Under the pieces are notes generated by a model. The model was given only the letters and a program-made list of their open reading frames with translations. It was not told the DNA's origin and did no database searches. Below, piece after piece: positions 23,741-62,739 of a stretch of 64,000 nt of DNA. How positions within the stretch are numbered: position 1 is the first letter of the stretch; the number at the start of each line of letters is the position of its first letter. A program made the position numbers and the translations under genes. The DNA is from a virus (taxonomy: Duplodnaviria > Caudoviricetes), in the IMG/VR virus record IMGVR_UViG_3300035422_000096, positions 26,446 to 90,445 of that record; one strand, written 5' to 3'.

Positions 23741-23876
23741 CTCATTATCTTAAATCAATTCCAGTATAATGTCAACTGGTTTATCGGTATATAATTCTTT
23801 ATAATGCCATGTATCTCTATATATTTTAATACATTGCAAATAGAATGTCCACTTGAAATTGTAGTTTCAAAGTGAT

Positions 23877-24899
23877 TTATACAAAAGCATCATCTGCATC
23901 TTCTTCATCTTCTCGCACAACATATATTTTTGTCGTTTCACTACTTTCATGTCCTAATAATTTTTGAGCTGTTTCTATAGATCTGTTTTGATAACATACA
24001 AGATTAGTTGCCCGTGAAGCTCTAAAAATATGTGGATTTATTCTACGTCCCATTATTTGAGTAAATAACCCTTGACACCATCCATTAAATGTGTCTTCTC
24101 CTACTTGGCGAACATCACCATTTGAGTGTTTTATTACAAACATATAAGGACAATCATCATCGCCACGTACTTCTAACCACTTGTCTAAGAATCTCTTTAC
24201 ATCTTCTCCGAATTGCAACTTACGAACTTTCCCTTGGCGACTACGTCCCTTACAACGAATATCATGTGTTTTATACGAAACGGATTCTACTTCGTGTTCA
24301 ATTCCTTCTTCATCAGTAATTGTAATCATCTTTCTCTTTGGTTCATAATTCACAACCTCTTTAAGAAGCTGCCTGGCTTCAGCCCTACGACAGCCTGTTG
24401 AATATGTAAACTTAACATATGCCAATTTTTCCCATTCTTCACGCTTTTCTAATTCTTCACAAAGATAATTAATTTCATCAGGAGTAAGAGGAATTTTTTC
24501 ATGAACTTTTCCTGTTAATGCTATCCTTTGCTCTGTTGTCACATAATTCCGGAATAAAGGATATTCTTCCTCATAAAATGACTCTATAAATTTATTAAAT
24601 GCACTAACAGACGATTTTTTAAATTTCATAGCAGAATCAGAAAGCCCACGATTATTTAACCAATTCAGATATCTAAGAAATTCTTTTTTCTTAATTTCTG
24701 TACAATTCTTATCTCTTAGATTCTCATGCACCCACCAAAAGTAAATTTTTAATGCGCTGGTATAACCAATCAAACTTTTTGGAGATAAATGAGTTTGATT
24801 ACTGAGGTAATCAGCGACCATATCTCTGTTAAATTTATTTACTTGCGACCACATTTCATCAGTTATTTCATCAGATCGTTTAGCGATTTCTTCACCCAA
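23877..24899 (-). CDS. Tyrosine recombinase (phage integrase family)
   Basis: Complete R-K-H-R-H-Y set: CRRAE, KGR, HIFR, LGH, TKIY; TTG start behind GAAAGGAAG. Confidence 0.9.
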   Translation of the reverse strand: MGEEIAKRSDEITDEMWSQVNKFNRDMVADYLSNQTHLSPKSLIGYTSALKIYFWWVHENLRDKNCTEIKKKEFLRYLNWLNNRGLSDSAMKFKKSSVSAFNKFIESFYEEEYPLFRNYVTTEQRIALTGKVHEKIPLTPDEINYLCEELEKREEWEKLAYVKFTYSTGCRRAEARQLLKEVVNYEPKRKMITITDEEGIEHEVESVSYKTHDIRCKGRSRQGKVRKLQFGEDVKRFLDKWLEVRGDDDCPYMFVIKHSNGDVRQVGEDTFNGWCQGLFTQIMGRRINPHIFRASRATNLVCYQNRSIETAQKLLGHESSETTKIYVVREDEEDADDAFV

Positions 24900-25103
24900 T
24901 AATCTCACTTCCTTTCATTACAAAATAATAAAAAAGACTTGCCACCTAGAGATAAGGAATATCCTTGTAATTCTCTTTATCTGTCTAACTGACAGACCAT
25001 AAATTATTTACATTACATATTTCTCCAAACAAATAAGGCTCACACTCATTTTTTTGAGTGCAAGCCTTTCAAAAGCTTTGCTCAAATATCAGATACTATA
25101 AAT

Positions 25104-25250
25104 TTAATTTTCCAACTTTTCCATCAACTCTCTCACAGTAATTTCCTCTCCAATAGATACACACTCATCTAAGCGATAGAAAAGTAGTTCTTTGAGGATT
25201 GTTAATTCATCGTCTATGAGGTCTACGGATTTTACAATTTCATTATACAA
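25104..25250 (-). CDS. Small acidic protein (48 aa)
   Basis: TTG start behind GGTGGTG: MYNEIVKSVDLIDDELTILKELLFYRLDECVSIGEEITVRELMEKLEN. Confidence 0.5.
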   Translation of the reverse strand: MYNEIVKSVDLIDDELTILKELLFYRLDECVSIGEEITVRELMEKLEN

Positions 25251-25270
25251 TAGTGTCACCACCGATCAGA

Positions 25271-25546
25271 TTAAGCTTTTATAGCATCCTTTAAAGCCTT
25301 GCCAGCCTTAAACTTGGGAGATTTAGAAGCCTGGATCTGAATGGATTCACCTGTTTGTGGGTTTCTGCCAGTTCTAGCAGCACGTTCTACAACCTCAAAA
25401 GTTCCGAAACCTGTAATGGAAACTTTATCTCCATCAACCAATGTATCAGCAATAATATTAGTAAAGGCATTCAGTGCCTTTTCAGCATCCTTTTTAGAAA
25501 TTTCAGCCTTTTCAGCCATACCTGTGATCAATTCTATTTTATTCAT
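25271..25546 (-). CDS. hup: HU histone-like DNA-binding protein
   Basis: MNKIELI..GFGTFEV..RAARTGRNPQTGE..PKFKAGKALKDA. Confidence 0.95.
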   Translation of the reverse strand: MNKIELITGMAEKAEISKKDAEKALNAFTNIIADTLVDGDKVSITGFGTFEVVERAARTGRNPQTGESIQIQASKSPKFKAGKALKDAIKA

Positions 25547-25839
25547 ATAATTTTTTATTCCTTTCAATTTTCAATCTTTTTTAAAAGTGAAATAGCGGCA
25601 CCAACAATTCCCTATCTCCGAGCCGTCTATTAATTTGGGTGTAGTACGACTAATGACCACCTCTGCCAGTTGGAATTAATGTGATATGATATAGTAGTGA
25701 CGCTATATCGTTTCGTCAAAACGGACTACTCAAAAGTAGAAGAGTAGTCCTGTTTTCCATAGTCACTTATGTGCATATAATATAAAAACTGTGTCACTCG
25801 TACACAGTCTACTTTGTCATGAAATTAGTATTCTATTTG

Positions 25840-27057
25840 TTAATCTAATGAAACAGGATAACAAGACTTTATCCCATCACGATCAATTACGCAAACCATT
25901 TGTGAAGGCTTTCCACTAAGTCTCTTAGAAATGGTATAATCATCAGTGGTTCCGCTAAAACTGCCACTTCTAATAATTTTTACGTTTGCAATATCATCAT
26001 ATGAACATCTATGTAAATGCCCATAAAAGATTCCTTTTGGTTTGAAATTAAGCATCATAACCAATTTAGATACGCCAGTCTCAGAATAACTATCCCAATC
26101 CCCATGTACTAAAAGATATTCATTTCCACGAATAACACAAGTAGCAATAGTAGAATCATAATTTTCACTATCAATAAAAACTACATTCTGTAAATGATTT
26201 AATTTTGCTTTCATATACCAAGGGATAAGATTATCCAATCGGTTTCCTCTAAGAACCTGATCCTTAAATGAAGTTCTTGAATGATTTCCAGCTACACCAT
26301 TTATATATACGCTTCTAAAATGTTTACTCAATTCATAAATAAATGCAGAAATTAATTCCGCACTCTTTTGGATTTGATCAGTGACATTTTCTCTATTTTC
26401 CAATTGCGTTGTAAAATGGATTTCGCCATTAAGAATATCACCTAATATACCAACATACGCATTTTCCGACTTGTGTATAGTTTGTATTTCAATTATTTTT
26501 GAGAAATACTGAGATAATCTATTAGCAGCAATGTCGGAATTATATTTTCCGAAATAATTATCTGTGTCAATTCCTAAATGAAAATCAGATAAACAGATAA
26601 ATAAATCATTGTCAGCAGATGCAATAAAATTATTCACTGGTGGAAGAGTGGTAGAACCATTCTTTTTGATTAGGCGTTCTAATTTGGATAAATCTTCTTC
26701 AATTCTTGCATTTTCACGTAATGTTTTATTTAGGGCTGTACGCTCATCAAAAAGTTTTTGCTTTTCCTTCCTTATATCTTGTTTCTGAATCTGTAACTCT
26801 TTAAAATAAGAATCTTCATCTTTACAAGTCTTAAAAGCGTTGGCATCTAAATATCTTTTTGCTTGCTGATAGGGCTTTCTATAAGCTGCCTCGCTCCTGT
26901 ACTCAGATTCGTCAGACCTAAATTCTGAATTTATAATTGCAGCTATTTCTTCCCATTTCATGTCAAGAGTACCAGCATCTTTAGCAGAACCAAGTCTAAA
27001 TATAAACTGTTCCTCATTTTCATTCTCTAATCTATGTAAGTCAATAATAGTAGTCAC
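25840..27057 (-). CDS. Calcineurin-like metallophosphoesterase (SPbeta YonJ-like position)
   Basis: LSDFHLG, GDILNG, AGNHSR, VHGD, YGHLH motifs. Confidence 0.8.
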   Translation of the reverse strand: MTTIIDLHRLENENEEQFIFRLGSAKDAGTLDMKWEEIAAIINSEFRSDESEYRSEAAYRKPYQQAKRYLDANAFKTCKDEDSYFKELQIQKQDIRKEKQKLFDERTALNKTLRENARIEEDLSKLERLIKKNGSTTLPPVNNFIASADNDLFICLSDFHLGIDTDNYFGKYNSDIAANRLSQYFSKIIEIQTIHKSENAYVGILGDILNGEIHFTTQLENRENVTDQIQKSAELISAFIYELSKHFRSVYINGVAGNHSRTSFKDQVLRGNRLDNLIPWYMKAKLNHLQNVVFIDSENYDSTIATCVIRGNEYLLVHGDWDSYSETGVSKLVMMLNFKPKGIFYGHLHRCSYDDIANVKIIRSGSFSGTTDDYTISKRLSGKPSQMVCVIDRDGIKSCYPVSLD

Positions 27058-27063
27058 CTACTT

Positions 27064-27276
27064 TCATTCTTCATCAAACATCGAACTAGAAATTGGAGCA
27101 GCTCCACCCAATTTAAGATCAATAGCCTGTCCAACATACTGTTTAAACATATTTACAATACTAATAGGAGCGTCAAATGCTTCCTCATTCACTAAAACTA
27201 ATTCGCCATTGATTTCCTCAACTCTTGCACCTACAATATTTTCAATTGTTTGATGTGTATTATCTAATTTTGCCAT
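27064..27276 (-). CDS. Small protein (YonK-like by size and position)
   Basis: 70 aa directly upstream of the phosphoesterase; RBS GAAAGG. Confidence 0.55.
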   Translation of the reverse strand: MAKLDNTHQTIENIVGARVEEINGELVLVNEEAFDAPISIVNMFKQYVGQAIDLKLGGAAPISSSMFDEE

Positions 27277-27397
27277 TTAAAATATTCCTTTCATATATTA
27301 ATTTTATATTTCTAAACTTTTATTTTTTCAAATTGTTTGGCTATTATCGGAGAGCCTTGCTACGGAGGACTGTTTGTACAAAACAGACAAAATGAAT

Positions 27398-27472
27398 TGC
27401 TGAAAGCACAGGAGTCGAACCTGTTATTTGATGGGTATGAGCCATCCGTGATAATCCGTTTCACTCGCCAGC
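27398..27472 (-). tRNA. tRNA-CAT (Met or Ile2) with irregular acceptor stem
   Basis: GATGG-CT-CAT-AC-CCATC anticodon arm, ACAGG-TTCGACT-CCTGT T arm; 3' acceptor strand is 9 nt (GCTTTCAGC) against GCTGGCG. Confidence 0.7.
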
Positions 27473-27474
27473 AA

Positions 27475-27547
27475 TGCGTCTATTGGGACTCGAACCAAAA
27501 ACCTATCGGTTAAAAGCCGATTACTCTACCAATTGAGTTATAGACAC
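27475..27547 (-). tRNA. tRNA-Lys(TTT)
   Basis: GTGTCTA/TAGACGC acceptor, ATCGG-CT-TTT-AA-CCGAT; one mismatch in the T stem. Confidence 0.9.
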
Positions 27548-27552
27548 AAAAA

Positions 27553-27969
27553 AGAACAAATGACGATACTGCAAGAATAGCAGCACCGCCACCTGTATAA
27601 GAGATGTACTCCTTATAAACGCCTCTGATTCAGGATAACTCTCGTATAATATTATAGGGGAGTTAGAATCAAAATCTACTTCCAGAGCATGTGAAGTCGT
27701 ACAGTCTCGCTTGGTGAACTTAACTGGTCTATATCACGTTTCACAAGTTTTTCATGTAACATCACACCAACTAAAATATAGTCACATGTTAGACGAAAAC
27801 AATTTGGGATAATCGAGAACCATCTAATCAATTTAAATGTCCTATAGACGATGTTTCAATGCTGGCAATAAATTAGTACCGATGTACTTTTGACAGGTAA
27901 TCTCAACCTAAATATTTCAAATTACAACCTTTGTTTGTTCAAACCACGTAGGATAAATCATTGTTCTGT
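27553..27969 (-). ncRNA. Large structured ncRNA (~415 nt), ROOL-like candidate
   Basis: ORF-free; ends pair (27958-27967 with 27553-27563); many internal helices; TATAAT at 27976-27981 (minus); abuts tRNA-Lys. Structure is seen, family name is inference. Confidence 0.6.
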
Positions 27970-28031
27970 TTTTATATTATAGCCCACAATTCCTAGAGGT
28001 TATTGTGGTACATTCCGAGGAAAGATAAATT

Positions 28032-28334
28032 TTATTGTTTATCGAAATATCCATTCAATTTTCTATTATAATATCTTGTAATTTTAGGCTTTGCCCAAAT
28101 TCTGGACTTACAAACTATATCATCATATGTATGAATTTCTTTTTCTGGAAGATAATTACATTCCAAACTTAATCCATCCATTAATTTAACAGTCATGTTT
28201 TCTGATGAGGTAGTAGAAGATAAATAGTCGAAAACAATTTTCTCTGCCGTTTTAAATATTTTTCGGACTGTCGCTATATCTATATCTTCTCTATTTGCTA
28301 TTTGTTTTACTAGATTTTCCTGTGTAACAATCAA
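28032..28334 (-). CDS. Divergent HU/IHF-like DNA-binding protein
   Basis: N-terminal TQENLVKQIANREDID..VRKIF helix pair and C-terminal AKPKITR strand. Confidence 0.55.
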   Translation of the reverse strand: MIVTQENLVKQIANREDIDIATVRKIFKTAEKIVFDYLSSTTSSENMTVKLMDGLSLECNYLPEKEIHTYDDIVCKSRIWAKPKITRYYNRKLNGYFDKQ

Positions 28335-28541
28335 ATAAGCATCATACCTCCAATCTGGTATCGAATTCGATTCGCGAGAATCATATCTTGCTTTGTAAAA
28401 AATAACATCGTATTTCCTCCATACTTAGTTATGTGTGATATGTTGCTTCTCTTATACACACATTTCATAGTCCACTATAAATGGGTTATTTATTTTAGAG
28501 TATTTTATTTAGACCATAAATAATGGACTATTTTTCAAGAT

Positions 28542-31280
28542 TCACATAAGTGGAATTTTATTATTTTTCTTTCTTTCTCTATCCCACTTTCTTCTATATT
28601 CCTTTTTGCATGAATCACATCTTGTAGATTTTGATTCAATAGGTAATTCAATCCATTCTCCACAATCAATACATTGAATAAATTTAGTTTTCTTTATTTC
28701 AATATTTTTCTCCAAACTATTTACTGCATATTGACCATAGCAGAACCAAAGTAATTGTTTATAACGCTTACCTTTTCCATATAAATATTCTAATAACATA
28801 TCTGTGATGGTTTCTTCTGAATATCCAAACCTAGCAAATTCATCTCGAATTTTGCAAGCAATATATCTAAGATTATCTATATATTCATCTTTCATATTGA
28901 TCATATAACGGTATTGTTTGTTTAACTCGTCATATAAATCCGAAACTTCTTTACTACAAATAATCTGAGGATTAGACATCATATACTTATAATTGATAGT
29001 ATCTAACTTCAAGCCACGAGTATTTATTGGCTTATTTGGAATCCTGTCATATATCTTATTTACAAAACTTTCATTACGCTTTTTTACCTGAGACTTTTCT
29101 TTATCTTTCGCATATTCAAAGAATGCTGGTAATTTACAGTTTGTATATTTAGCAATCTGTTCGTTTATTTCGTGAGGAAATTCTGGCTTATATAAAGTCT
29201 TGGCGTAATCAATCACAAAATTATTTTGACAGCATAATCTTTTTACACAATCAATCGCTTCTGATTTTTCAGCGTCAGTACCAAATGTAAACACCTCATT
29301 ATTCCATATCTTAGAAATATTATTACTATAAATGCCAATATTCCCACCTGTGAAAGCAGCATTAAGTCCAGCATAGATATTCTTATTATTAAGCTGAGTA
29401 GGTTCTGCCTTTCGCATATTATAATAAAGGGGAACAATGCCATTCATATTGCGTTCTGCAATTCTTACAAAATCTTGATCAGCTACAACGAGACTTTTAT
29501 CTCCATCAACATCATACATTAGTATTTTACTGATTAAATCATGTGTACTAGCATATATACCATCCGTAGTAAACCATTCTCGAATTAATTTAGATCTATC
29601 ACCATAAACCTCATTAGCAACATTAAATCTAATAGCATGTTCTTTATACAAATGAGGACTTCTCAAACAATCCAACTTTTCATATCGCTTAAATAACCAA
29701 CAAAATACTTCTTTGTCACTTAATAAGCCAGTAGGAGTGTCAATATGTCCAAACCAAAACTCACAAGCAGCGTAGAAGTCAGGAAGTAAAAATGTATATT
29801 TCCCATTTACCTCAAGTTTTCCACTACGATATTTTTTCAAGAGACTATTCTTTACTTCGCGGATCACATCTTTAGCATATGAATCATTGAGCAGAGCTGG
29901 ATACATTTTTACAGCCTTTTGAAAAGCAGTCATATTCGTATTGTATGGTGTAATTCCCAAAATATCCATCATAGTATCTTTAGACGAACAAACATTACTA
30001 ATGCGTTCAGATGATTTTTGAATTAGTAAATCAATCTCATCATCAGAAATATTTGTAAGCGTCTGAAGCATCTGGTAATTTATTTTAGCATTTTTAATTC
30101 TGTCTTCTTCAACATTACATTTACCAGCACTACAATGATATTTTTTAAATGAATCCTTATATTCGTCCCATGAGTCATAGAATTTTGCCATCTTAAATTG
30201 GGATTTTGTGAAGATAATCTGTATATCTTCTTTAATAACATCATGCTCCTGACCATAAATATCTATGATAATAGGAGAGTAGTCATTAACTTCTATAAAC
30301 TTCCTAAAATTAAACACACCTAATAAACCCTTAATCCAAGGCGCACGAAACATGAAATTTTTACTAGAAACTGATGGAAGGATCATGCCAGCTCCATCTG
30401 TATGAGGAATTGGCACATAATCCGTTTTTCTCGTAATCGAGTAATCCGTTTCATCCACAAAGTCGAAAATGCCATATACATCAGTTTCAAAATCATCCAC
30501 CACAATAGACTTGTCAATGTTAAATTCTTTCCACTCATCAGTAGCAGAATTAGTTAAAGCCATATAAGCTAAGTGTTTATTGACGTTATTTCCACCTTTT
30601 GAGTTAATTTTATCTATTGTAAGACCACACATAACAGTCTTTTCTATTTCATTCCATACAGATTCTTTAATGAATACCGCTTTCTTTTTTCGAATCTGTC
30701 CAGCAGAAGATGTAAAATATTTATATTTCTCGCCTTTATATGTAAACCCGTAAAAAGATATATCTTTAAATACGTCAAAATAATAAACCTGTACCACAAT
30801 CAAAACATCTGTTAATTCATCTTGCTTAATATCAATAGTACGACTAAGAGCAGAATCAAATACGGATATAATGTTTGTATCGTTCAAACTATCTTCTTTG
30901 ATGGTGCGAAGATGATCTTTCCCGTCTGTCAACTCATTCTGATTCATTTTGTTAGATAGAAGAGTAAGTAACTTTTTTTTTGATTCCTTCGCCTTTTCTC
31001 GTTTGTGCCTAATTAGTCTTGACCAATGTAAATATTCAGAAACAGTGTTATAAGAAGATTCAATGATGTCAACTTCTTCTGTCTTGTCATTTTTCAGATT
31101 CTTAATATCGTCTTCTGTATATCCAAACTGTTTTAATTGTCTTTCAATTTCTGGTAGATTATTTTGAACATAATTACGTTCTCTACGATATTTACAATTC
31201 ATATCATGTAAATATTTCTCGTGATTGCTGTAAAAATGTCCAGTATCTACAGAATACATATTATATTGTTTATCTAGCAA
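28542..31280 (-). CDS. yonO: Single-subunit RNA polymerase, YonO-like (RdRP-related double-psi fold)
   Basis: 912 aa; catalytic YDVDGD (DxDGD), LRSPHL, HTDGAG, FRAPWIKG motifs; C-terminal CxxC..CxxC. Confidence 0.85.
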   Translation of the reverse strand: MLDKQYNMYSVDTGHFYSNHEKYLHDMNCKYRRERNYVQNNLPEIERQLKQFGYTEDDIKNLKNDKTEEVDIIESSYNTVSEYLHWSRLIRHKREKAKESKKKLLTLLSNKMNQNELTDGKDHLRTIKEDSLNDTNIISVFDSALSRTIDIKQDELTDVLIVVQVYYFDVFKDISFYGFTYKGEKYKYFTSSAGQIRKKKAVFIKESVWNEIEKTVMCGLTIDKINSKGGNNVNKHLAYMALTNSATDEWKEFNIDKSIVVDDFETDVYGIFDFVDETDYSITRKTDYVPIPHTDGAGMILPSVSSKNFMFRAPWIKGLLGVFNFRKFIEVNDYSPIIIDIYGQEHDVIKEDIQIIFTKSQFKMAKFYDSWDEYKDSFKKYHCSAGKCNVEEDRIKNAKINYQMLQTLTNISDDEIDLLIQKSSERISNVCSSKDTMMDILGITPYNTNMTAFQKAVKMYPALLNDSYAKDVIREVKNSLLKKYRSGKLEVNGKYTFLLPDFYAACEFWFGHIDTPTGLLSDKEVFCWLFKRYEKLDCLRSPHLYKEHAIRFNVANEVYGDRSKLIREWFTTDGIYASTHDLISKILMYDVDGDKSLVVADQDFVRIAERNMNGIVPLYYNMRKAEPTQLNNKNIYAGLNAAFTGGNIGIYSNNISKIWNNEVFTFGTDAEKSEAIDCVKRLCCQNNFVIDYAKTLYKPEFPHEINEQIAKYTNCKLPAFFEYAKDKEKSQVKKRNESFVNKIYDRIPNKPINTRGLKLDTINYKYMMSNPQIICSKEVSDLYDELNKQYRYMINMKDEYIDNLRYIACKIRDEFARFGYSEETITDMLLEYLYGKGKRYKQLLWFCYGQYAVNSLEKNIEIKKTKFIQCIDCGEWIELPIESKSTRCDSCKKEYRRKWDRERKKNNKIPLM

Positions 31281-31292
31281 TTCGTACCTCCA

Positions 31293-32102: not shown

Positions 32103-32137
32103 CTAAACACCTTCCTTTCATTGAACCAATGAAATTT

Positions 32138-32971
32138 CTATTCTAAGTCATTATCCTCGAAATTATTATTATCGAGCAATGACTGATATTTTTTTGCAAG
32201 CAGCTTTCGTCTTTCTTCATAATCATACATTTCCTGAAGACGGATCAAATCTGTATCAAACTTTTCCAACTCAGCGACCATCTGGAGTTCAAAGTTATTA
32301 AAATGGTTCCTTACAGGCTCATCTTTAGGCAGACAGTGTTTAAAACGATAGTCTGATGCACTCATGCCAATAATGATTTCGTTAAGTAAGTTAGCTTCTC
32401 CCATAAATACTCCCTGATCACCACGCTTTTTACACCAGTCTGGCATTGTAGGCATCAGTTCCTTTTTGGATAGGTTAATAATCTTGCGATAATTCTTGTA
32501 ATGTTCTAAAGTTTCCCATCTATCAATATTCCACAAGCGTCTTACTTTAAACGCTTTGTCAATAGCGATAAAATATTTACGGGAAATGCGCCCAATTTTA
32601 TTATTCTCTACCATAGACAATTCCTTTGCCACATCAAGAGTAAGAGAGTAGTCAGTAATATTATGACCACCTCTACCTTTGCTCGCCCGTTTTGGCGAGC
32701 AAAACTTATAATCCTCATTCTCGATAAATTCATATTTATTAATTCTACCTTTTATCCAATTTGTGAAATCTTTACCAACTTTCAATTCCTTATGTAATGT
32801 CCTCGCATCAATCCAGGAACCATCTTCTTGCTGTAACACAGGAAGCAACTTTTGATAATCTAATATAATTTTAACTTCAGACTCCTTCAAATCTCCATTT
32901 TTGACATATTGCTTCAATTCTTCTTCTTTGAAACTATTCTTTCTTAAATTATTATTGTTTTCGTTCATCAT
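32138..32971 (-). CDS. AntA/AntB-type antirepressor
   Basis: IDARTLHKELKVGKDFTNWIKGRINKYEFIENEDY..DYSLTLDVAKELSMVE. Confidence 0.85.
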   Translation of the reverse strand: MMNENNNNLRKNSFKEEELKQYVKNGDLKESEVKIILDYQKLLPVLQQEDGSWIDARTLHKELKVGKDFTNWIKGRINKYEFIENEDYKFCSPKRASKGRGGHNITDYSLTLDVAKELSMVENNKIGRISRKYFIAIDKAFKVRRLWNIDRWETLEHYKNYRKIINLSKKELMPTMPDWCKKRGDQGVFMGEANLLNEIIIGMSASDYRFKHCLPKDEPVRNHFNNFELQMVAELEKFDTDLIRLQEMYDYEERRKLLAKKYQSLLDNNNFEDNDLE

Positions 32972-32986
32972 TCTTTCCTTCCATTT

Positions 32987-33214: not shown

Positions 33215-33216
33215 TC

Positions 33217-35758: not shown

Positions 35759-35777
35759 ATAAAAAACGCCTCCTTCC

Positions 35778-36629
35778 TTATACCCACTTAGTTTTTCTGT
35801 TTTTTACACGATCATATTCTGTTTGTAATATTTGTTTTCTCTCTTCGTATGAGTAAATTTCCTGAGAAATAATTAACTGTGCATCATATCGTTCTAATCT
35901 TTCTACATCATCTAATTGATCTTCAGAAAAATAATTTCGTATCTGTTCATTAGAAGATATATTATGTTCTTTACGATATTGAGTAGCCGACATTCCAAGT
36001 ATCACAGTATTTAATAATGAAAACTCAATAGAGTATAAATTGCCATTAGTAATCCATTCAGGAACACCATTAAGTAATTCTTCTCTTTTTGTGATCAATG
36101 CACCTCTTAATTCTTTGCAATTAATTAAGGTGTTCTTACGATTTTGATTCCAATTGGTACGATTTTTAAATGCTTTTTCTATAATAATGAAATATCTTCT
36201 AACCAAAGCTCCGATACTTGTACGCTCAACCATTGCTAACTGTTTTGCACAATCAAGAGTGAGAGAGTAGTCCAGTGTCTCTTTGGGCTGTAAACCGCTA
36301 TTTTTCACGGTTTCGTACTTTCTGGAAACCGTAAAATAATCAATCTCTTTTATCAACTGGTAAGAATTGATACGATTTTCAATCCAATCTGTAAATTTCC
36401 AACCATTATTTAATTGTTTATGTAAGTCTCTGGCATTAACCTTTGAGTCATTTCTATCAGACTGTAAAATGGGCAAAAGTGCCTGATATTCAAGGATTGT
36501 AGAGATTTCATCATCTGGCAATCCATATTGTTTTAATTCTTCCTTAGTAAATTTTCCATCTTTAAATGACTCACTTTCATATACTTTTTCTTTTCTTAGT
36601 TTTTTGGTATTTTTGTTTGTAATTCGCAT
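35778..36629 (-). CDS. AntA/AntB-type antirepressor (paralog of 32138..32971)
   Basis: VNARDLHKQL..FTDWIENRINSY..DYSLTLDCAKQLAMVE. Confidence 0.85.
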   Translation of the reverse strand: MRITNKNTKKLRKEKVYESESFKDGKFTKEELKQYGLPDDEISTILEYQALLPILQSDRNDSKVNARDLHKQLNNGWKFTDWIENRINSYQLIKEIDYFTVSRKYETVKNSGLQPKETLDYSLTLDCAKQLAMVERTSIGALVRRYFIIIEKAFKNRTNWNQNRKNTLINCKELRGALITKREELLNGVPEWITNGNLYSIEFSLLNTVILGMSATQYRKEHNISSNEQIRNYFSEDQLDDVERLERYDAQLIISQEIYSYEERKQILQTEYDRVKNRKTKWV

Positions 36630-55310: not shown

Positions 55311-55532
55311 ATGGAGGACATAAGTATGAATGACAAATATGAAGTAATAAAAGAGTTTGAATGTCATGGAGAACAGATGGTGACTGTTAGGATCGGAAAC
55401 GCTGCTCATGTAATGAGTTTAGAAGAATGGCATAAAATTTATGGAAGAAGTCATCAGGATAAATGGAAAACTAAGGTTGATTGGAATAGATTTATACCAA
55501 GAAAACTATATAATCAAAGTAAAGTATCTTAA
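55311..55532 (+). CDS. Hypothetical protein
   Basis: 73 aa ORF, internal GGAGG RBS. Confidence 0.55.
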   Translation: MEDISMNDKYEVIKEFECHGEQMVTVRIGNAAHVMSLEEWHKIYGRSHQDKWKTKVDWNRFIPRKLYNQSKVS

Positions 55533-55567
55533 AATGATTAGTCCCTGATAGGATTGGAGGATATATT

Positions 55568-55786
55568 ATGACAGTTAGAGAGTTAAAGGATCAGTTAGAG
55601 ACGTTTGATGACGATATGGAAGTTGTCATTGGAATGCAACAGACATACGGAACAAATTTTGCTATGGAGATTGAAGATAATCTTGATGAATATAATGTTA
55701 CAGCTTTTGGTGGTGAAGATTGTAGGGCGGTTGTGATAACAGAAGGAAGTCAAATTGGTTCTGTTGATTATAGTGAAGATGAATAA
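55568..55786 (+). CDS. Small acidic hypothetical protein
   Basis: RBS GGAGG; MTVRELKDQLETFDDD. Confidence 0.7.
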   Translation: MTVRELKDQLETFDDDMEVVIGMQQTYGTNFAMEIEDNLDEYNVTAFGGEDCRAVVITEGSQIGSVDYSEDE

Positions 55787-55831
55787 AAAATAGGATGAAT
55801 GGATTATTTTATTGGAAAGTAGGAGGTATTT

Positions 55832-56716
55832 ATGTCAGATATTATTGATAAACTGCTTGATAAAATAGTAGATGTTACAGGAATTTTATATCCTTTTACT
55901 TCTACAATTAAAAATATAACTGATAATAAAAACGAGTTAAGAGATTTACACAGAGAACTCGATCGAGAGTATAAAAAGAATATACTAGAAGGTCGTGACT
56001 TAGATGATTTTCAACGGGCAGTTCTTATTTCAAGTATTAACCAGTCTACTAAAAAATTTTATAATCAAGTTAAAATACTTAATGTGGCATGTAATAATAT
56101 GAATGATTCTGCCGATCCTAATCTATTAGATGATGATTGGTTGTTTTATTTTATGAACAAGGCAGCGTTAATATCTGACGAGCAAATGAGAAATACATGG
56201 GGATCAATATTAGCAGAAGCTTGTGATGATCCTAAGATTTGTAGTAAAAGTTTAATAAACACATTGTCATTAATGAATAAAAATCATGCAGAAACATTTA
56301 AATGTATATGTAAGTTTAGGCTTGTTAATATGAATATACCAGCTGATGATAAAGATAGAATAAGCTATTATCCTGTTATATTCTTTGGCAAGAACGCTCA
56401 GGGATACGCAAATCATGGATTAACAAATAGAAGAATTTTGGAGTTAGAACATTTGGGTTTAATTGATCTTGATTCAAATAAAGAGTTTGTAGTTTATACA
56501 GATTTGTTAAAGTTACGAGATAGAAAAAATAGTGTTGAAATTATAGGAGATGGAAAAGTAGAAATCGGAAACATTACATTTACATATGATGGGTTTTTGT
56601 TGCAGAAAATTATTGAAAATTATTATGATAGTAAAATAATGGATTTTAATATTCAAGTATGGTGTCACAAGGGCTATCAAGTTTATAGGAATGGTAAGAA
56701 GCAGAATGGAGAATGA
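55832..56716 (+). CDS. DUF2806-like protein
   Basis: LDDDWLFYFMNKAALISDEQMRNTWGSILA..SKSLINTLSLM. Confidence 0.7.
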   Translation: MSDIIDKLLDKIVDVTGILYPFTSTIKNITDNKNELRDLHRELDREYKKNILEGRDLDDFQRAVLISSINQSTKKFYNQVKILNVACNNMNDSADPNLLDDDWLFYFMNKAALISDEQMRNTWGSILAEACDDPKICSKSLINTLSLMNKNHAETFKCICKFRLVNMNIPADDKDRISYYPVIFFGKNAQGYANHGLTNRRILELEHLGLIDLDSNKEFVVYTDLLKLRDRKNSVEIIGDGKVEIGNITFTYDGFLLQKIIENYYDSKIMDFNIQVWCHKGYQVYRNGKKQNGE

Positions 56717-56761
56717 AATAATAGTTTTAACCTATGATTAACATTAGATACGAGGAATTTT

Positions 56762-57739
56762 ATGGATACAGAAAAATACTCTGAAATAGAGATATTTCAC
56801 ATGGTTTTAAGTGGAGAATTAAAAAGATATCCAAATGGGTTTTGGGTTCCACCGTTTGGAATTACTTACGCTGTTAATATCTTAAAATATGTAATCGAAG
56901 ATATTTTAAAATGGAATGATAATGATATTATTGAAAAGTATGATATAAATTTGTTTAAGAAGTATAAATTATGTGGTTTATTGGCAAACATATTTAATAA
57001 CTCGCCATTTGAAGCCCTCAATGCAGTTTATCCAAATAGATTTCATGCATGGCAATTAAATAAAAAGCCTTTAAGATATTGGAAAGATGAAAAGAATGTT
57101 ATTGAAGTAGTAAAACATGTCTATGAAGATGAACTGGGAGTTGTAAATACAGAAGAAATATATGATATAAGGGATCATAAAGGTATTTTTGATAAATATG
57201 GAATAAGGGCAATTCCAAGAATACAAAATAAGTCAATACATGAAATAATTATTATGGCATATCCAGAATTATGTGAAAGTGGTTTTCATAAAAGAAGTAA
57301 TTCTTTTTATACTGTTGAAAATCAATTAGAAGTTTTAAAATCATGGATCGAAACAAATAATTATAAACATGATGATATTGTAAAAATGACAGAAGAATCA
57401 TTAAAAGACATTAAACTATATGCTACACTAGTTTACAAAAATAATATGGGAATTTATGATATTATAAATACAATTTATCCAGGAGAATTTAAACCGTGGG
57501 AATTTCCAAAAATTAAAAGAGGATTTTGGAAAGATGATAAAAATATTTGTGAAGCAGTAAAGTGGCTTATTGAAGAAAAACTAAACATTGATACTAAAGA
57601 TACAATTAGGATATCAAAAGAAGACTTTCGTAGAAATAGTTTAACAAGTTTGATTCAGTATGCTGAAATAAATCATATTGGACTTAAAACATTGATGAAA
57701 ATGGTATATAAGGATTCTAATGTGGTTTTCAAAATTTGA
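56762..57739 (+). CDS. DUF4046-like repeat protein
   Basis: EIFHMVLSGELKRYPNGFW; repeated YPxxFxxW..xxxYW units. Confidence 0.65.
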   Translation: MDTEKYSEIEIFHMVLSGELKRYPNGFWVPPFGITYAVNILKYVIEDILKWNDNDIIEKYDINLFKKYKLCGLLANIFNNSPFEALNAVYPNRFHAWQLNKKPLRYWKDEKNVIEVVKHVYEDELGVVNTEEIYDIRDHKGIFDKYGIRAIPRIQNKSIHEIIIMAYPELCESGFHKRSNSFYTVENQLEVLKSWIETNNYKHDDIVKMTEESLKDIKLYATLVYKNNMGIYDIINTIYPGEFKPWEFPKIKRGFWKDDKNICEAVKWLIEEKLNIDTKDTIRISKEDFRRNSLTSLIQYAEINHIGLKTLMKMVYKDSNVVFKI

Positions 57740-57856
57740 TTGTGTATAGGCATAGGTTTATATATTTAAGTGATAGGAATCGTGTAAAAGCGATTCTTTT
57801 TCTTTACAAAGTCTTTTGCTTGTGATAACATATTTGAAGAAAGGATGTGATAACAA

Positions 57857-58447
57857 ATGCCAAAAGATGATTACATTCGCTTTAGATGCTCTACTGATCT
57901 GAAAGAATTAGTAGGAAGACAGGCGGAAGAAAAGGGAATGAATATAACGGATTATATGGAATATCTGATCAGAAAGGATGGAAATAATATGATGTATGTG
58001 TATTATACTGAGGAATTAAATGGAGAAATTACAAAGAAAATTACTGATAATGGAAATGCTGTTAGAGTAGATCCAGATGAAGATATGTATTTATTGTCTA
58101 AGACCGACAAGATTTCCGTAGATGGAAAAGTGATAGATTGTAGTTATTCTCTTGAAGAATATATAAAGTTTTTTGATGGAGGAGATATTGTTAGATTAGC
58201 TGGTATAGAAATCACTAAAATAGAAACCATAGAAACTCTTTTGGACATGTTGTATGAATCGTGTGGAAACGATAAACATGAAACGTATGCTGAACGGATT
58301 TATAATTCCGATAATCCTCGGAATGAAATTAAGCAGATTATCAATGAATTTTTGATAATAAGAATGGATATGGTATTGTCTGATATTAAGTCAGAAGTAT
58401 GTCGGATAGAAAAACAGATTGAAGATGGGACATTAGAGTGGGAATAA
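57857..58447 (+). CDS. Protein with N-terminal ribbon-helix-helix
   Basis: YIRFRCSTDLKELVGRQAEEKGMNITDYMEYLIR. Confidence 0.65.
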   Translation: MPKDDYIRFRCSTDLKELVGRQAEEKGMNITDYMEYLIRKDGNNMMYVYYTEELNGEITKKITDNGNAVRVDPDEDMYLLSKTDKISVDGKVIDCSYSLEEYIKFFDGGDIVRLAGIEITKIETIETLLDMLYESCGNDKHETYAERIYNSDNPRNEIKQIINEFLIIRMDMVLSDIKSEVCRIEKQIEDGTLEWE

Positions 58448-58467
58448 TATTTTTTGAGGATATTTTT

Positions 58468-58935
58468 ATGCCAGAGCAGAAATTTAGCATCAAAGAAAAT
58501 CAGGAAATATGGGATGCCTATTATAATCGACATTTGCAAGAATGGGAGAAAGAAAATAAGGAAAAACTTGAAACTCAAAAGTGGACAGATGAAGAAAAAA
58601 TAGTACATGGTAAAAAGTTAATGTCTTATAGTATGTCACTGGACAAGATAACGCCATATAGTTATGCTTATATTAGGAAAAAGCAGAGCATACAACAATA
58701 TAAGCCAGTTATACTAAGATTTGAAAACTATATTAAAAAATCTTTTAATGATGTTTCTGCGGAAGATATGGAAAAATTTAGGAGAGTAGAGAAGAAAATA
58801 AATCATTTCAATGCATTTATGATTTATTGTGTAACTAATAAAATTATACAAAATAATAATAAAGATTTTTTGATTGGTTTATTACCAGAAATATATAGGA
58901 GTATTGGTAAAATAATTGCTGAATTAGGTGGATAA
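58468..58935 (+). CDS. Hypothetical protein
   Basis: Start MPEQKF behind GAGG. Confidence 0.6.
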   Translation: MPEQKFSIKENQEIWDAYYNRHLQEWEKENKEKLETQKWTDEEKIVHGKKLMSYSMSLDKITPYSYAYIRKKQSIQQYKPVILRFENYIKKSFNDVSAEDMEKFRRVEKKINHFNAFMIYCVTNKIIQNNNKDFLIGLLPEIYRSIGKIIAELGG

Positions 58936-58972
58936 AATCTAAGTTTCAAGAACATTATGGAGGAATGAAGGA

Positions 58973-59422
58973 TTGAAAAAATTTGCAGTAATGAGATTTG
59001 AATATCCAGGCGATGTTCACGAATTTTTACGTAAACATCAGGAATTAAGTTTATATGATATAGAATATAAAGAATTTTTAGTAGCAGAAACTGAAAAAAG
59101 CAATAAACCTAAATATAAGAAAAAAACTGTTGCTAGATTTGTTAGTGAGAATGATAGATTAATCATAACATCTTTTGACAGCTATATAAAGTTGAGTGAT
59201 AATGCAAAGAAAATCGTTAGTTGTGTTAAGATGCCTGATGAAGAACCAATTAAATTGCAGATTGGAAAATCATTTAATGGAATTACTGTTGACGAAGATT
59301 TGTATTATGAAGTCTTTCATTTTGCAACAGACAACGGATTAAAATATTGGAGACATGATGTGGAAGATGGTGAACAGATTGAAATTTGCATTAATCCAGA
59401 TAGTATTGTTAGATTAGAATAA
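58973..59422 (+). CDS. Hypothetical protein
   Basis: TTG start behind GGAGG. Confidence 0.7.
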   Translation: MKKFAVMRFEYPGDVHEFLRKHQELSLYDIEYKEFLVAETEKSNKPKYKKKTVARFVSENDRLIITSFDSYIKLSDNAKKIVSCVKMPDEEPIKLQIGKSFNGITVDEDLYYEVFHFATDNGLKYWRHDVEDGEQIEICINPDSIVRLE

Positions 59423-59461
59423 AACAATGAAATTAGATATTCAAGGAAGGGATGAGGATAA

Positions 59462-59806
59462 ATGGATAAAGAACAATTTATCAAATGGAGAGAAAATGGT
59501 GGAAGAATATATAAATATGTATATGAGGTCGAAGCAGGAAAAGAAGATTTAAGAAAAAGCGAATGTGAAGTAGACGCAGTTTATGAAGACGGGTTTAAAA
59601 CGTTCGGCTTTGGATATCATATCCCATTTGATTGCTTTGAAAAATGGAAAATGCAACATTGGAGTTCAAATTCATATGAATATTTTATCTTCTTGACTAA
59701 TGAACAGAACATAGATGATTATTTGGGAGAAATAAAAAAATGTATTGCTGAAGGACTTCAAAAAGAAATAAGGGATTTGCAAAAATCATTGGCATTAGTT
59801 GTATAA
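59462..59806 (+). CDS. Hypothetical protein
   Basis: RBS GAGG. Confidence 0.7.
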   Translation: MDKEQFIKWRENGGRIYKYVYEVEAGKEDLRKSECEVDAVYEDGFKTFGFGYHIPFDCFEKWKMQHWSSNSYEYFIFLTNEQNIDDYLGEIKKCIAEGLQKEIRDLQKSLALVV

Positions 59807-59918
59807 TCAGCACGACAATGTGATATTTAACTAAATACATTAAGGTAGTAAAGCATTTGGAGTTAAATCCAGATGCTTTTTATTATATAAAAAATTACAT
59901 ATTTTAGGAGGTTTTTGT

Positions 59919-60848
59919 ATGAGCGCAGTAGTAGCAATGAATGAGGAAACAAGGAGGATGGAACAATTTAATGACATAGTGGCAAATATCAAGCCACTTA
60001 TGACTGTTGGAAAAGGTAAGAATCAGAGAGCAATTACAGGGAGTGCAGTTGTTCCGTTGTCTTGTTGTTTTGTGGATTCAAGGTATCAGGGTATGAGAAC
60101 ACATAAGCATCTGAATCGGTTAAAGAATAAATGGGATGAACGAAAGTTGACACCTATTATCTTAGTACCACATCCAGAAGAATACAGATTTGCGGTTGTA
60201 GATGGTCAGGGGAGGTGTCTTGTGGCTCCTGATAAGGGTATGGATCGTCTCAATGCAATTATCCTTATGGACGCTCCTGAAGACTTAGATGAGCGATTAA
60301 AATTTGAAGCTGAATACTTCATAGGACAGGATTCAGAAGTGGAAAATGTGAAGCCACTTGAAAAGCATCTTTCAAGAGTAATTATTGGTGATAATGCTGC
60401 CGTTTCTTTGGATAAACTTTTAAACAAATATGGAATTAAATTTGTTGCAACAAAAGGAAACAGGGAAGAATCGGTTCTTGGAAGTTATACAGATACATAT
60501 TCAATTGTAAAAGTTCATGGTGAGAAGTGCCTGGACTTTATTTTTTCTATCATTGATAATGCTGGTTGGAACAAAGAGACAAACGGGTACGCAACTTTTG
60601 TTATGAGAGCGTTGAGAGAAGTATGGATTGCACATCCGAATGATAGGAAGGAAATACATAGATATTTGTCAAAGGAATTAAGACAGATTGATCCTGCTTT
60701 ATTCAGTGCAGAAGCAAAAGCAAAGTATCCGAAACGTGACCACAGAGTATCCTGTGTGCTTTATGTGGAGGATTTAGTGTGTGACGGACTCGGAATAGAG
60801 AAGAAGATATATGTAGAGAACGGAAAGAAAGTAAAAATTTCTAATTAA
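59919..60848 (+). CDS. ParB/sulfiredoxin-fold protein (DUF6551-like)
   Basis: VDSRYQ..WDERKLTPIILV..FAVVDGQGR. Confidence 0.65.
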   Translation: MSAVVAMNEETRRMEQFNDIVANIKPLMTVGKGKNQRAITGSAVVPLSCCFVDSRYQGMRTHKHLNRLKNKWDERKLTPIILVPHPEEYRFAVVDGQGRCLVAPDKGMDRLNAIILMDAPEDLDERLKFEAEYFIGQDSEVENVKPLEKHLSRVIIGDNAAVSLDKLLNKYGIKFVATKGNREESVLGSYTDTYSIVKVHGEKCLDFIFSIIDNAGWNKETNGYATFVMRALREVWIAHPNDRKEIHRYLSKELRQIDPALFSAEAKAKYPKRDHRVSCVLYVEDLVCDGLGIEKKIYVENGKKVKISN

Positions 60849-61909
60849 TGTTTGAGATGGAGGAAAATGTCATGAAAATTATCAAAGGTGCGGATCGTGG
60901 AAGAACAGAGTGGACAGCACGGAAACTTGTTGAATTTGTGGAAGATAGAACAGTGAATTTTAACATTGATATTCAAAGGGGTTATGTGTGGAAAGATAAT
61001 GACAAGAAATCTGCTTTGATTCGCTCTTTGATATTGGATAGACATGTTCCTCCATTGTATTTTAACAAGGTGGAAGATGTTTATGAGGGTGAAGACGGAA
61101 AGCAACGGACATTAACTATTATTAAATTCTTAAAGGATGAGTTTGAATTGAGCGGACTTGAGGAATTTACAGTAATAAATGATGAAGGGGAGACGGAAGA
61201 AATTGACATCAACGGGTACAAGTTTAGTGATTTGCCAGAATGTTTCCAGAATGCTATTAAGGAATATTCATTCACCATTTGTTATACGGACAATGCGGAT
61301 CAGGAAGAACAGGCGGATACATTCTATAATCTGAATAATGGTCAGGCATTAAACGCTGCTACGATGAACCGTGTAAAGGCGAAATCAAAGGAACAGATTA
61401 TCAATCTTGGGAAGCATAAATTATTTGAAGATGCTTTAAGTCAGACAGCTTTAGATGGACATGTAAATGAGGATATGGTGGCAAAGGCACATGCAATCTT
61501 AAATGACAGTGAAGTTTCTACGGATGCAAAATGGATTCGTCCATATATGAGGAAAGCAGATATTACGAAGGATGATGAGTTCCTGCTCAATGAAGTGTTT
61601 GAACGAATTTATAACATTCATTCTATGATAGAGGATAAGAAAATTGCAAAAAGAATTTATGCCAGGACACATATGATTAGTATTGTGCCGATTATTGCAG
61701 AGTCAATTAATGAAGGATATTCAGATAAGCAGATGATGGAATGGTTTGTAAACTTCTTTAGTGGAAAGAAATCTGCTACAACTTCTAAGGCGTATAATGA
61801 TGCTGCCGGACGTGGAACAGGAAAAAATTCTGCTGTTATGAAGAGGGTGGAGGAAATTAAAAAGGATTATGATAAATATTTTGGAAGTATGAAGACTTTA
61901 GCAAGTTGA
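60848..61909 (+). CDS. DUF262 (GmrS/ParB-like) domain protein
   Basis: IQRGYVW..LIRSLIL..VPPLYF..DGKQRTLTI; TAATG coupling. Confidence 0.8.
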   Translation: MFEMEENVMKIIKGADRGRTEWTARKLVEFVEDRTVNFNIDIQRGYVWKDNDKKSALIRSLILDRHVPPLYFNKVEDVYEGEDGKQRTLTIIKFLKDEFELSGLEEFTVINDEGETEEIDINGYKFSDLPECFQNAIKEYSFTICYTDNADQEEQADTFYNLNNGQALNAATMNRVKAKSKEQIINLGKHKLFEDALSQTALDGHVNEDMVAKAHAILNDSEVSTDAKWIRPYMRKADITKDDEFLLNEVFERIYNIHSMIEDKKIAKRIYARTHMISIVPIIAESINEGYSDKQMMEWFVNFFSGKKSATTSKAYNDAAGRGTGKNSAVMKRVEEIKKDYDKYFGSMKTLAS

Positions 61910-62008
61910 TTTGTATATATTCCATGCTGTATATGTGTTGGATCGTGCTCTATACTTCTTCACGAAAAAGAGAAGTAATTTATATAAAATGATTGGAGGA
62001 AAAATTTT

Positions 62009-62392
62009 ATGAGTAGAACAACGGCAGGAATCATGAGAATTAATCAGGAATTAGATAAGATTTCTGGTTTGGGTGGTATCGTGTCAGAAAAAATTGAAGA
62101 ACTTGAAAATCAAATTAGAACTATGGTGTCTGACATTTTGGAAAATCATTCAGAAGCAAGTATGTTTGATTACTATGGAGATGGTTCAAATGTGCTAAGT
62201 AGTAGTGTAAAATATGACGCTTCATTAAGGATAATGGAAATTAAAAAGGCTATTCGTAACGTGCAAAAAGATGGACTCAGAGTTGCATTGAATGATGGAA
62301 AATTATGTGTAGAAAATACAGTCAGGACGATGAATACCAATGACTATACAGAACCTTTTGGGTATGCAGAAATTGATTGCTTTGGTGATTAA
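62009..62392 (+). CDS. Hypothetical protein
   Basis: RBS GGAGG. Confidence 0.7.
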   Translation: MSRTTAGIMRINQELDKISGLGGIVSEKIEELENQIRTMVSDILENHSEASMFDYYGDGSNVLSSSVKYDASLRIMEIKKAIRNVQKDGLRVALNDGKLCVENTVRTMNTNDYTEPFGYAEIDCFGD

Positions 62393-62560
62393 AACGTCTT
62401 AAAATCATCGTTTGATTGGAGGTGCATTTATGGAAGAAAAGTATATGGATAAACTATATGAGTTATTGGAAAAAGCAGAAAAAGAAAAGGATCTCGAAGT
62501 AATAGCAGTATTAAGATGGGTGATTTTTAACTTGGAAAATAGATAAGGAGAGTATGAGTT

Positions 62561-62674: not shown

Positions 62675-62739
62675 TTTTATCATTGAAAAATAATAAATTA
62701 TCACTTATAATATATGAAGTGGAAGGAAGGTGATATAGT

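Follow-up and report, generated by a model that had tools for sequence, protein, structure and literature searches.

Phage mosaicism is a long-standing question, to which the modular theory answered by proposing conserved linkers between modules. Short conserved sites of exchange between modules were reportedly put forward by Botstein in 1980, as the linkers of that theory, and by Clark et al. in 2001, as boundary sequences of lambdoid phages. Evidence for such linkers is sparse and points to no common architecture; in later work few were found, and preference was given to illegitimate joining at random, with selection acting afterwards. Here we analyse a 64-kb stretch of viral DNA (the window; positions 26,446 to 90,445 and thus the end of the 90,445-bp IMG/VR contig IMGVR_UViG_3300035422_000096, CheckV completeness 58%), in which a dyad of 16-18 bp, composed of two short arms around a 6-bp centre, recurs between the genes of the early arm. 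These dyads are very probably the joints at which related phages exchange gene cassettes, and the new point is that the 6-bp centre is the address of each joint.

Several described systems come close to such an array. Tyrosine recombinases act on arms that surround a short spacer, which measures 6 bp for Xer, 7 bp for lambda Int and 8 bp, cut 6 bp apart, for Cre. Cassette exchange with heterospecific lox or FRT sites is a man-made arrangement of two sites with 13-bp arms, in which only sites of the same centre recombine. In T4-type phages, promoter early stem-loops (PeSLs) are composites of about 50-60 bp that consist of a strong promoter and a terminator hairpin and are present as interchangeable copies (PMC2839356, PMC4122927). 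The pdif sites of Acinetobacter plasmids are 28 bp long, possess unlike 11-bp arms for XerC and XerD, alternate in orientation and depend on the host XerCD (PMC6449649, PMC13141974). Among the mycobacteriophages, Cluster A carries stoperators and Cluster O carries 17-bp dyad repeats; the latter have invariant 7-bp arms and a 3-bp centre, and few of them, if any, are located at insertions, deletions or rearrangements (PMC6550527, PMC4351075). In SPbeta, a 15-bp motif named SPBRE is found at about 10 promoters and is bound by MrpR (YopR), which has lost its catalytic residues (PMC10516654).

The window belongs to a phage of low GC content, with a minus-strand late arm that extends to about 41.4 kb, followed by a plus-strand (early) arm of about 50 small genes. 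The original prediction had listed 11 copies of a palindrome with a 6-nt gap (N6) at the junctions of the early arm, three near-matches (51492, 51802 and 54933) and a perfect copy at 23854-23869, behind the gene of a tyrosine recombinase. All of them were verified in the sequence at the coordinates given, and one strict copy that had been overlooked, at 55796-55811, was added. The perfect copy is present, and it starts 7 nt past the recombinase stop codon, not 8 nt. The strict pattern overlooks decayed copies; the near-matches at 51492 and 54933 are such copies, since their centres, TAATGA and TGTACC, recur in strict copies of other phages.

Taken over the window as a whole, the degenerate pattern shows no enrichment, with 74 matches against 62.7 +/- 9.2 in shuffled sequences and 14 of 100 shuffles reaching 74. 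The enrichment is confined to junctions, where the original prediction had placed it. The sense-strand junctions of the plus arm (3.3 kb) contain 12 matches, and the motif is present in 10 of 14 junctions of 30-60 nt in the plus arm compared to 1 of 6 in the minus arm. When the arms were kept fixed and the gap was varied from 0 to 15 nt in the plus-arm junctions, N6 yielded the 12 matches and every other gap 0-5. A Gibbs sampler run with the ribosome-binding sites masked recovered the same motif de novo and in the same register.

The pattern, fitted on the window, was then used unchanged on other genomes. At N6 it gives 20 matches in G1 (3-6 at other gaps), 49 in G2 (3-16) and 147 in 18 further loci (8-39). 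Early-arm matches number 43-46 in three of four near-complete genomes and 15 in the fourth, G8, with the late arm at background. The early arm of SPbeta contains 84 matches against 33.6 +/- 6.8 expected, without excess at N5 or N7, and about 30 palindromic dyad copies; in the first 50 kb of SPbeta the enrichment is not significant. No motif excess is seen in L004-L006, loci from Lachnospiraceae and Mordavella metagenome-assembled genomes (MAGs) that share one gene only, nor in L019, L023 and L028. A search of IMG/VR with one 16-mer address returned more than 100 matches, mostly by chance, in unrelated viruses.

The copies in the window, referred to as joints, are listed below together with the loci in which the same centre was found.

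44135-44150, plus strand: joint that begins with the stop codon of the upstream gene as its first three bases and has centre CAATTA; also in G4, with unrelated flanks, and in G5.
44624-44639, plus strand: joint with centre GGGATA, at a stop codon and followed by a promoter-bearing gap of 160 nt; no same-centre partner among the genomes examined.
47448-47463, plus strand: joint with centre TTGTAA, directly 5' of AGGAGG; also in G4, L017 and L034, with unrelated flanks.
50461-50476, plus strand: joint with centre GAATCG; also in G2 and L034. Homology of the window with L001/G2 stops at 50477, the edge of this copy, and the downstream DNA is unrelated.
51492-51507, plus strand: decayed joint with centre TAATGA, in which GGAAA replaces TRAAW; strict copies at G2:13157 and L020:3263.
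53586-53601, plus strand: joint with centre TCGGAA, at a TAG stop codon; also in G4 and L017, with unrelated flanks.
53853-53868, plus strand: joint with centre CTCGTA; also in G2, G4 and G5, the flanking genes all being unrelated.
54492-54507, plus strand: joint with centre TTCGCA; also in G1, G4, L020 and L021, with unrelated flanks.
54933-54948, plus strand: decayed joint with centre TGTACC and right arm TTTTC; homology with L003 begins at 54930, and the centre is also found at G2:17608, L020:7038 and L025:744.
55796-55811, plus strand: joint with centre GGATTA, the left border of the DUF2806 cassette; also in G1, G2, G4, G5 and G8. The 99% identical module in common with L003/G1 begins at 55792, and the left arm differs.
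55832-56716, plus strand: DUF2806 gene, an example of a cassette between two joints; the protein is 100% identical in G1, where it lies within otherwise unrelated DNA.
56714-56729, plus strand: joint with centre TAATAG, the right border of the DUF2806 cassette; G1 has centre TGATTG at this position, and TAATAG is also found in G5, G8 and L025.
58933-58948, plus strand: joint with centre TCTAAG; the 16-mer occurs in five loci, with five different upstream and five different downstream flanks.
59428-59443, plus strand: joint with centre TTAGAT; six loci, with at least four upstream and at least three downstream contexts.
59919-61909, plus strand: conserved pair inside the array, encoding an uncharacterised protein of 309 aa together with a DUF262/GmrSD_N protein.
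62400-62415, plus strand: joint with centre TCATCG; also in G4, G5 and L021, with unrelated flanks.
23854-23869, minus strand: perfect dyad TGAAA-CTACAA-TTTCA (as read on the gene strand), behind the recombinase gene; the sole late-arm copy with a conserved partner in other genomes.

By eye, the joints at 53586-53610 and 62400-62420 overlap small inverted repeats toward the ribosome-binding site (CGGA...TCCG and AATCA...TGATT, respectively).

The relatives were gathered by protein-anchored searches of IMG/VR with the gene pair 59919-61909 as anchor. They are records of 90-180 kb, several of them proviruses, and MAG matches suggest Lachnospiraceae as their hosts. Genes were called heuristically from open reading frames (ORFs) and a ribosome-binding-site score. 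The replication block of the relatives matches yorF-yorL of SPbeta, and a megablast search against the GenBank phage set revealed no close phage relative of the window.

A logo of 81 sites gives the consensus W-T-R-A-A-W-(Y)-N4-(R)-W-T-T-Y-A-W, in which the flanking W positions (80 and 78 of 81 sites) and the R/Y symmetry at positions 2 and 15 lie outside the original pattern. About 45 copies per genome are located between a stop codon and the next ribosome-binding site, in the early/accessory arm only. The start of the site is a real stop codon in 23 of the 81 sites and lies 4-12 nt past the stop in 35, while the end is mostly found 11-25 nt ahead of the start codon, directly 5' of the Shine-Dalgarno sequence. 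With respect to the genes, all sites point the same way; each arm has about 6 bp conserved and mirrors the other. The symmetric positions show no covariation in the 81 sites (positions 2 and 15 can pair in 54 of them, compared to 57 by permutation), and because of this a hairpin in RNA, or in DNA of the attC or N4-promoter type, is unlikely and was ruled out. To judge from its sequence, the geometry of the dyad would fit a symmetric protein dimer on duplex DNA. The site was also ruled out as a promoter or terminator: the strong candidates for either in 44000-63500 sit elsewhere, none of them coinciding with a site. Rfam at the gathering threshold detected four tRNAs only, and no family matches the dyad sites.

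The centre of each dyad acts as its positional address. Centres are unique within a genome (49 of 49, 56 of 56 and 47 of 48), which by itself carries little weight because few chance duplicates are expected among about 50 six-mers. Across genomes, the shared centres follow one another in perfect order. G2 shares 23 centres with G4 and 23 with G5 (Kendall tau 1.00 and p 8e-23 in both cases), G4 and G5 share 19, G2 and G1 share 15 (both with tau 1.00), and the eight centres common to G0 and G4 are collinear as well (tau 1.00, p 5e-5). At the right end of the window the order is TCGGAA, CTCGTA, TTCGCA, GGATTA, TAATAG or TGATTG, TCTAAG, TTAGAT, the pair 59919-61909 and TCATCG. Every relative has that pair, invariant, amid the variable array, and in some of them a second DUF262 copy lies nearby. 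It had been argued that the non-identical spacers speak against homology-dependent exchange; this objection falls, as the spacers differ within a genome and are identical between sites of the same rank in different genomes. Members of the G10 clade have the same arms and almost no centres in common with the other genomes, so the arms are conserved over long distances and the centres only within a clade.

Exchange at these addresses can be followed in individual cassettes. The window and L003 have a module in common (55792-56730, 99% identical by blastn) outside of which their DNA is unrelated, and in both phages this module is bounded by the copies at 55796 and 56714. The 16-mer T[GA]AAATTAGATATT[TC]A occurs in six loci with at least four upstream and at least three downstream contexts, and the TCCGGT class has four upstream and six downstream contexts. 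For a systematic comparison, same-address pairs were defined as sites of different genomes, among seven, with an identical centre and at most two mismatches, and their flanks were scored by the protein homology of the flanking genes. Among 128 such pairs, which are not independent events as many of the compared loci share descent, neither flanking gene is homologous in 100, only the upstream gene in 17, only the downstream gene in 11 and both in none. Directly outside positions -1 to 18 the identity is at background. Control 16-mers placed over ribosome-binding sites or stop codons yield 29-fold and 98-fold fewer such islands per pair, respectively.

The intervals between joints lead to the same picture. 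In three whole-genome comparisons, 12 of 22, 9 of 18 and 4 of 7 intervals with the same two bounding centres have no homologous gene inside, and a fully homologous interval is found once in the first comparison, once in the second and not at all in the third. Such same-centre intervals differ in gene number, size and family. Between TAATAG and TCTAAG, for instance, the window has three genes (2.2 kb), L018 one gene of 89 aa and L026 a different gene of 101 aa. Where homologues do occur in same-centre intervals, their identities are bimodal, about two thirds of them at 80-100% and the rest at 32-61%. The original prediction had regarded the dyads as possible cassette boundaries on which the breakpoints of gene gain and loss might fall, and both expectations are borne out by the comparison: homology between related phages starts or stops at the sites, the same site stands between unrelated genes, and short junctions with a site carry 0.39 unique breakpoints each, compared to 0.09 for those without. 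Per kb, unique breakpoints amount to 8.9 in junctions with a site, 3.1 in junctions without and 0.38 in coding DNA. The same holds for SPbeta, where at the site between yoqG and yoqH the homology of 10 Bacillus phage records (phi3T, SPbetaL4/6/7 and hybrids) stops exactly at base 5 of the site, and that of Goe11, Goe13 and Goe14 starts 12 nt past it.

The position of the crossover was examined in 163 same-centre pairs with unrelated flanks on both sides. In these pairs, uninterrupted identity extends over a median of 13 nt. The variable positions of the left arm hardly exceed background (0.68 vs. 0.64). At the border between left arm and centre (position 5|6) linkage is lost abruptly, and on the right side it reaches background by about position 18-22. 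As read from these alignments, the exchange point is sharp at the left-arm/centre border and more diffuse on the right.

What could carry out the exchange? We tentatively rank first a site-specific reaction that would be catalysed by a phage tyrosine recombinase, because of the arm-centre-arm layout with its 6-bp centre, the same-centre partners, the one sharp border and the very short identity. Related phages or prophages would meet in one cell, where the cassettes between two joints could be exchanged. Recombination between copies with the same centre would swap the DNA on one side, and a second event at the next shared centre would complete the replacement of the cassette. The recombinase would bind the arms and exchange strands across the 6-bp centre, and the differing centres would prevent deletions within one genome. 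The logic would be that of cassette exchange with heterospecific lox sites. In its full form this scheme, on which we are more reserved still, would amount to a natural recombinase-mediated cassette exchange: about 45 heterospecific sites, alike in their arms and each with a 6-bp overlap specific to its position, would form a collinear scaffold, served by a dedicated recombinase of the YomM family or of the early arm, on which accessory and counter-defence cassettes may be swapped between co-resident relatives without deletion of the phage's own genome.

The prime candidate for the enzyme is encoded in the window, with a copy of the site behind its stop codon.

23877-24908, minus strand: YomM-family tyrosine recombinase of 343 aa, with SAM-like core-binding and catalytic domains (Pfam) and an XerC-like match in the PDB.

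According to an alignment, R, HxxR, H and Y are all present in this protein, which is 32% identical to SPbeta YomM over its full length (E 4e-52), 100% identical in G004 and 62-65% identical in G007, G010, G011 and G012. Each of the 10 related records examined encodes 2-4 tyrosine recombinases, and all 21 recombinases compared (20 from relatives and that of the window) keep R, HxxR, H/W and Y. They form three groups, namely the integrase at the provirus end, the YomM type of the late region and a third type inside the early arm. The last of these, encoded in the early arm of relatives, would be the second candidate; the contig of the window stops ahead of the place where it is carried. A dyad with centre CT(A/C)CAA follows the stop codon of the gene at the YomM position by 6-11 nt in G0, G004, G005 and G006, the centre being CTCCAA in the last three. 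The genes that precede this dyad are of two types, 21-24% identical to each other, and the DNA beyond the site is unrelated. The conserved site behind the gene in four genomes makes a link between the dyads and the recombinase at 23877-24908 plausible, and the protein is a candidate for the enzyme. As a separate observation, the sequence TGAATCTCCAG about 30 nt past the yomM stop codon of SPbeta (L207:40225-40250) resembles a left arm with a CTCCAA centre and has no right arm.

Several findings weigh against a dedicated recombinase. In the 163 pairs the right arm is partly linked to the centre (0.70 vs. 0.51), and in pairs that share one flank the breakpoint is mostly found at the outer or far edge of the dyad and not at the centre border; because of these two results, the crossover points cannot all be fixed. 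A recombinase type of 317 aa, 21-24% identical, replaces the YomM type in G005, G006 and G009 while the arms are unchanged, and SPbeta YomM has HxxK in place of HxxR, yet SPbeta possesses the sites. Only 5-6 bp are conserved per dyad arm, and characterised tyrosine recombinases contact 9-13 bp per arm. The core set comprises genes for an SSB-like (single-stranded-DNA-binding) protein, an ATPase with weak similarity to AAA_24/25 and a RecJ-like exonuclease, and their order is that of yorG and yorK of SPbeta, annotated there as Sak4-like and RecJ-like, respectively. A 75-aa Cro/C1-type helix-turn-helix (HTH) protein is likewise core in G1, G2, G4, G5, G8 and G10. Together, the Sak4-like/RecJ-like module and the HTH protein could explain binding and exchange without a site-specific enzyme.

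L060:11913-12140, minus strand, in the relative G004 and not in the window: 75-aa Cro/C1-type HTH protein, opposed to the direction of the early arm.

This HTH protein, a possible binder of the dyad, is an example of the regulator assumed in a second explanation, which we rank close behind the first and regard as possible, if doubtful. The dyad would primarily be an operator or roadblock for a dimeric regulator, silencing or tuning the 100-kb early arm, and exchange would be a by-product in which the 13-18 bp islands act as short homologies for annealing by the Sak4-like/SSB/RecJ-like module, as in PeSLs. Half-site centres 11 bp apart and the missing covariation fit an HTH dimer on duplex DNA, and the sites are limited to one transcription arm. 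Such an operator also agrees with the short arms, with their conservation across clades while the centres drift, as if only the arms were contacted, and with breakpoints that are spread across the dyad and its edges; the HTH gene and the replication/recombination block discussed above, the latter matching SPbeta, would supply the proteins. On the other hand, the sites are not at promoters, and known roadblock sites, the stoperators, are asymmetric and oriented. A median shared identity of 13 nt is very short for annealing, and similarly short ribosome-binding-site regions produce far fewer identity islands (the 29-fold difference given above). The sharp break at the left-arm/centre border also speaks for a site-specific reaction. 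G008, which has the fewest sites, is the only genome in which Pfam AAA_24 reaches its threshold. Searches of five genomes for RecT, Erf, YqaJ, RecA, Rad52 and a serine recombinase found none, a result that leaves room for the weakly scoring Sak4-like ATPase.

An endonuclease is improbable as the driving force. In that case a phage enzyme would cut the interrupted palindrome so that the ends carry the centre sequence, and repair from a co-resident relative would copy the neighbouring cassette, as in a homing process without an intron or with restriction enzymes whose sites are interrupted, with the DUF262 (ParB-like) protein and its 309-aa partner as candidates. Arms around an N6 gap are also the layout recognised by many type II endonucleases, the pair 59919-61909 is core in all genomes and lies in the middle of the array, the domain match is to DUF262/GmrSD_N, and a RecJ-like exonuclease is core. 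However, the core status of the pair arises partly by construction, since it served as the search anchor, and the more usual role of DUF262 proteins is in defence or anti-defence. The 309-aa protein has no Pfam match, and no nuclease domain was detected in it. Break repair, moreover, would normally convert variable lengths of flank instead of stopping at the dyad.

The analogy with integrons drawn in the original prediction is very improbable and was rejected. It would require attC-type folded single-strand sites and an IntI-like integrase that moves single cassettes; in its favour, small promoterless genes have their stop codons just ahead of the sites, and the phages encode tyrosine recombinases. 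Against this, the arms do not covary, one third of the copies mispair at positions 2 and 15, and the site measures 16-18 bp and not 57-141 bp. The sites extend over about 100 kb in an order that is fixed and collinear, there is no attI/Pc arrangement, the recombinase at 23877 sits in the other arm, and many intervals carry several genes. Finally, there might be no dedicated element, and the motif might arise from stop-codon context, with TAA or TGA followed by A, combined with the U-rich sequence that precedes ribosome-binding sites where the genome is rich in AT. One could cite for this the missing window-wide enrichment, the 23 of 81 copies that start at a real stop and the opening three letters of the pattern, which spell a stop codon in three of four allowed forms. 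This idea is refuted by the specificity for one gap length (no excess at N5 or N7) and by the conservation of centres across genomes with unrelated flanks, in line with the 58 of 81 copies that do not use a real stop and with the lack of enrichment at late-arm junctions of the same genomes.

Beyond the array, the window phage shows features of SPbeta-like phages, namely a YonO-type RNA polymerase in addition to the YomM-family recombinase, and a few further genes recur among the relatives.

28542-31280, minus strand: YonO-type single-subunit RNA polymerase of 912 aa, as in SPbeta, matching Pfam RdRP and phrog_8308 over the full length; homologues were called in G4, G5 and G10, none matches at 1e-4 in G8, and the G2 record is without a late region.
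42649-43182, minus strand: member of the MazF/PemK-like toxin family, located where the early arm begins and encoded against its direction; among the few genes common to all seven genomes compared.
16471-17679, minus strand: ORF of 402 aa inside the late region, of the PHROG transposase family phrog_506; a shorter copy, 60% identical, is found in G2 at 104.9 kb.
32138-32971, 35778-36629 and 36941-37771, minus strand: a series of three paralogous genes for AntA/AntB or P22 Ant-like antirepressors, a family that is core in the relatives.

Ahead of the window, positions 1-15000 of the contig (G000) have a low ORF coverage and alternating strands.

In SPbeta-like phages of Lachnospiraceae and Bacillus, the linkers are thus discrete, follow one consensus and have centres that are specific to their position. 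G4, G5 and G10, three genomes of 160-180 kb, have no more than 27 gene families in common, yet related genomes share up to 23 linkers in perfect order. The joints offer a concrete and testable mechanism for the rapid turnover of accessory genes, and since SPbeta, phi3T and their relatives have these sites and breakpoints too, it is open to test by ordinary genetics in B. subtilis. A dedicated recombinase, if true, would represent a new natural use of heterospecific sites and possibly a tool for ordered cassette exchange at multiple sites.

How do the dyads compare with the systems described so far? In the literature searched, no published description of the sites was found, and the words palindrome and mosaic are absent from a comparative paper on SPbeta and related phages. 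SPBRE is alike in that it is a repeated element of an SPbeta-type phage and involves a protein with a tyrosine-recombinase fold. The original prediction had drawn an analogy with MrpR, and identity of SPBRE with the dyad was ruled out: the SPBRE-like sequence that the yorE and yosX upstream regions have in common, ATACAAAAAYAAAAAATATA, bears no relation to the dyad and lies beside and not within it, and the recombinase of the window keeps R, HxxR, H and Y. The stoperators are similar in number and placement, a short site present tens of times in the small gaps between genes, close to stop and start codons, whereas they are asymmetric, 13-14 bp long, oriented and bound by the immunity repressor, and the arms of the dyad are symmetric. 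In contrast to the Cluster O repeats, the dyads of the window type are the rearrangement points themselves.

The PeSLs resemble the dyads as short conserved intergenic elements among small accessory genes, at which recombination shuffles modules between related phages; gain, loss and replacement of modules between relatives happen at the dyads too. The dyads, however, are 16-18 bp long, neither promoter nor terminator, and the rank of each copy in the genome is set by a centre of its own. Integron attC sites likewise lie just past the stop codons of mostly promoterless accessory genes, in the company of tyrosine recombinases, but they are 57-141 bp long, act as a folded single strand and have no address, whereas the dyads lack a folding signal and keep a fixed order. 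With pdif and dif sites the dyads share the many copies with a 6-bp centre that bound accessory modules moving between replicons; they differ in their arms, which are about 6 bp long and alike, in their single orientation and in their position-specific, collinear centres. The linkers of the modular theory differ from the dyads, which constitute a genome-wide family with one consensus and position-specific centres. As in simple Cre- or Xer-like sites, whose partners share their overlap, dyads that are joined to different flanks have identical centres. The closest parallel in logic may be the heterospecific lox and FRT sites, which also combine identical arms with differing centres and allow a cassette to be swapped without deletion; the dyad array, for its part, is natural, comprises about 45 sites per genome and would be served by a putative recombinase.

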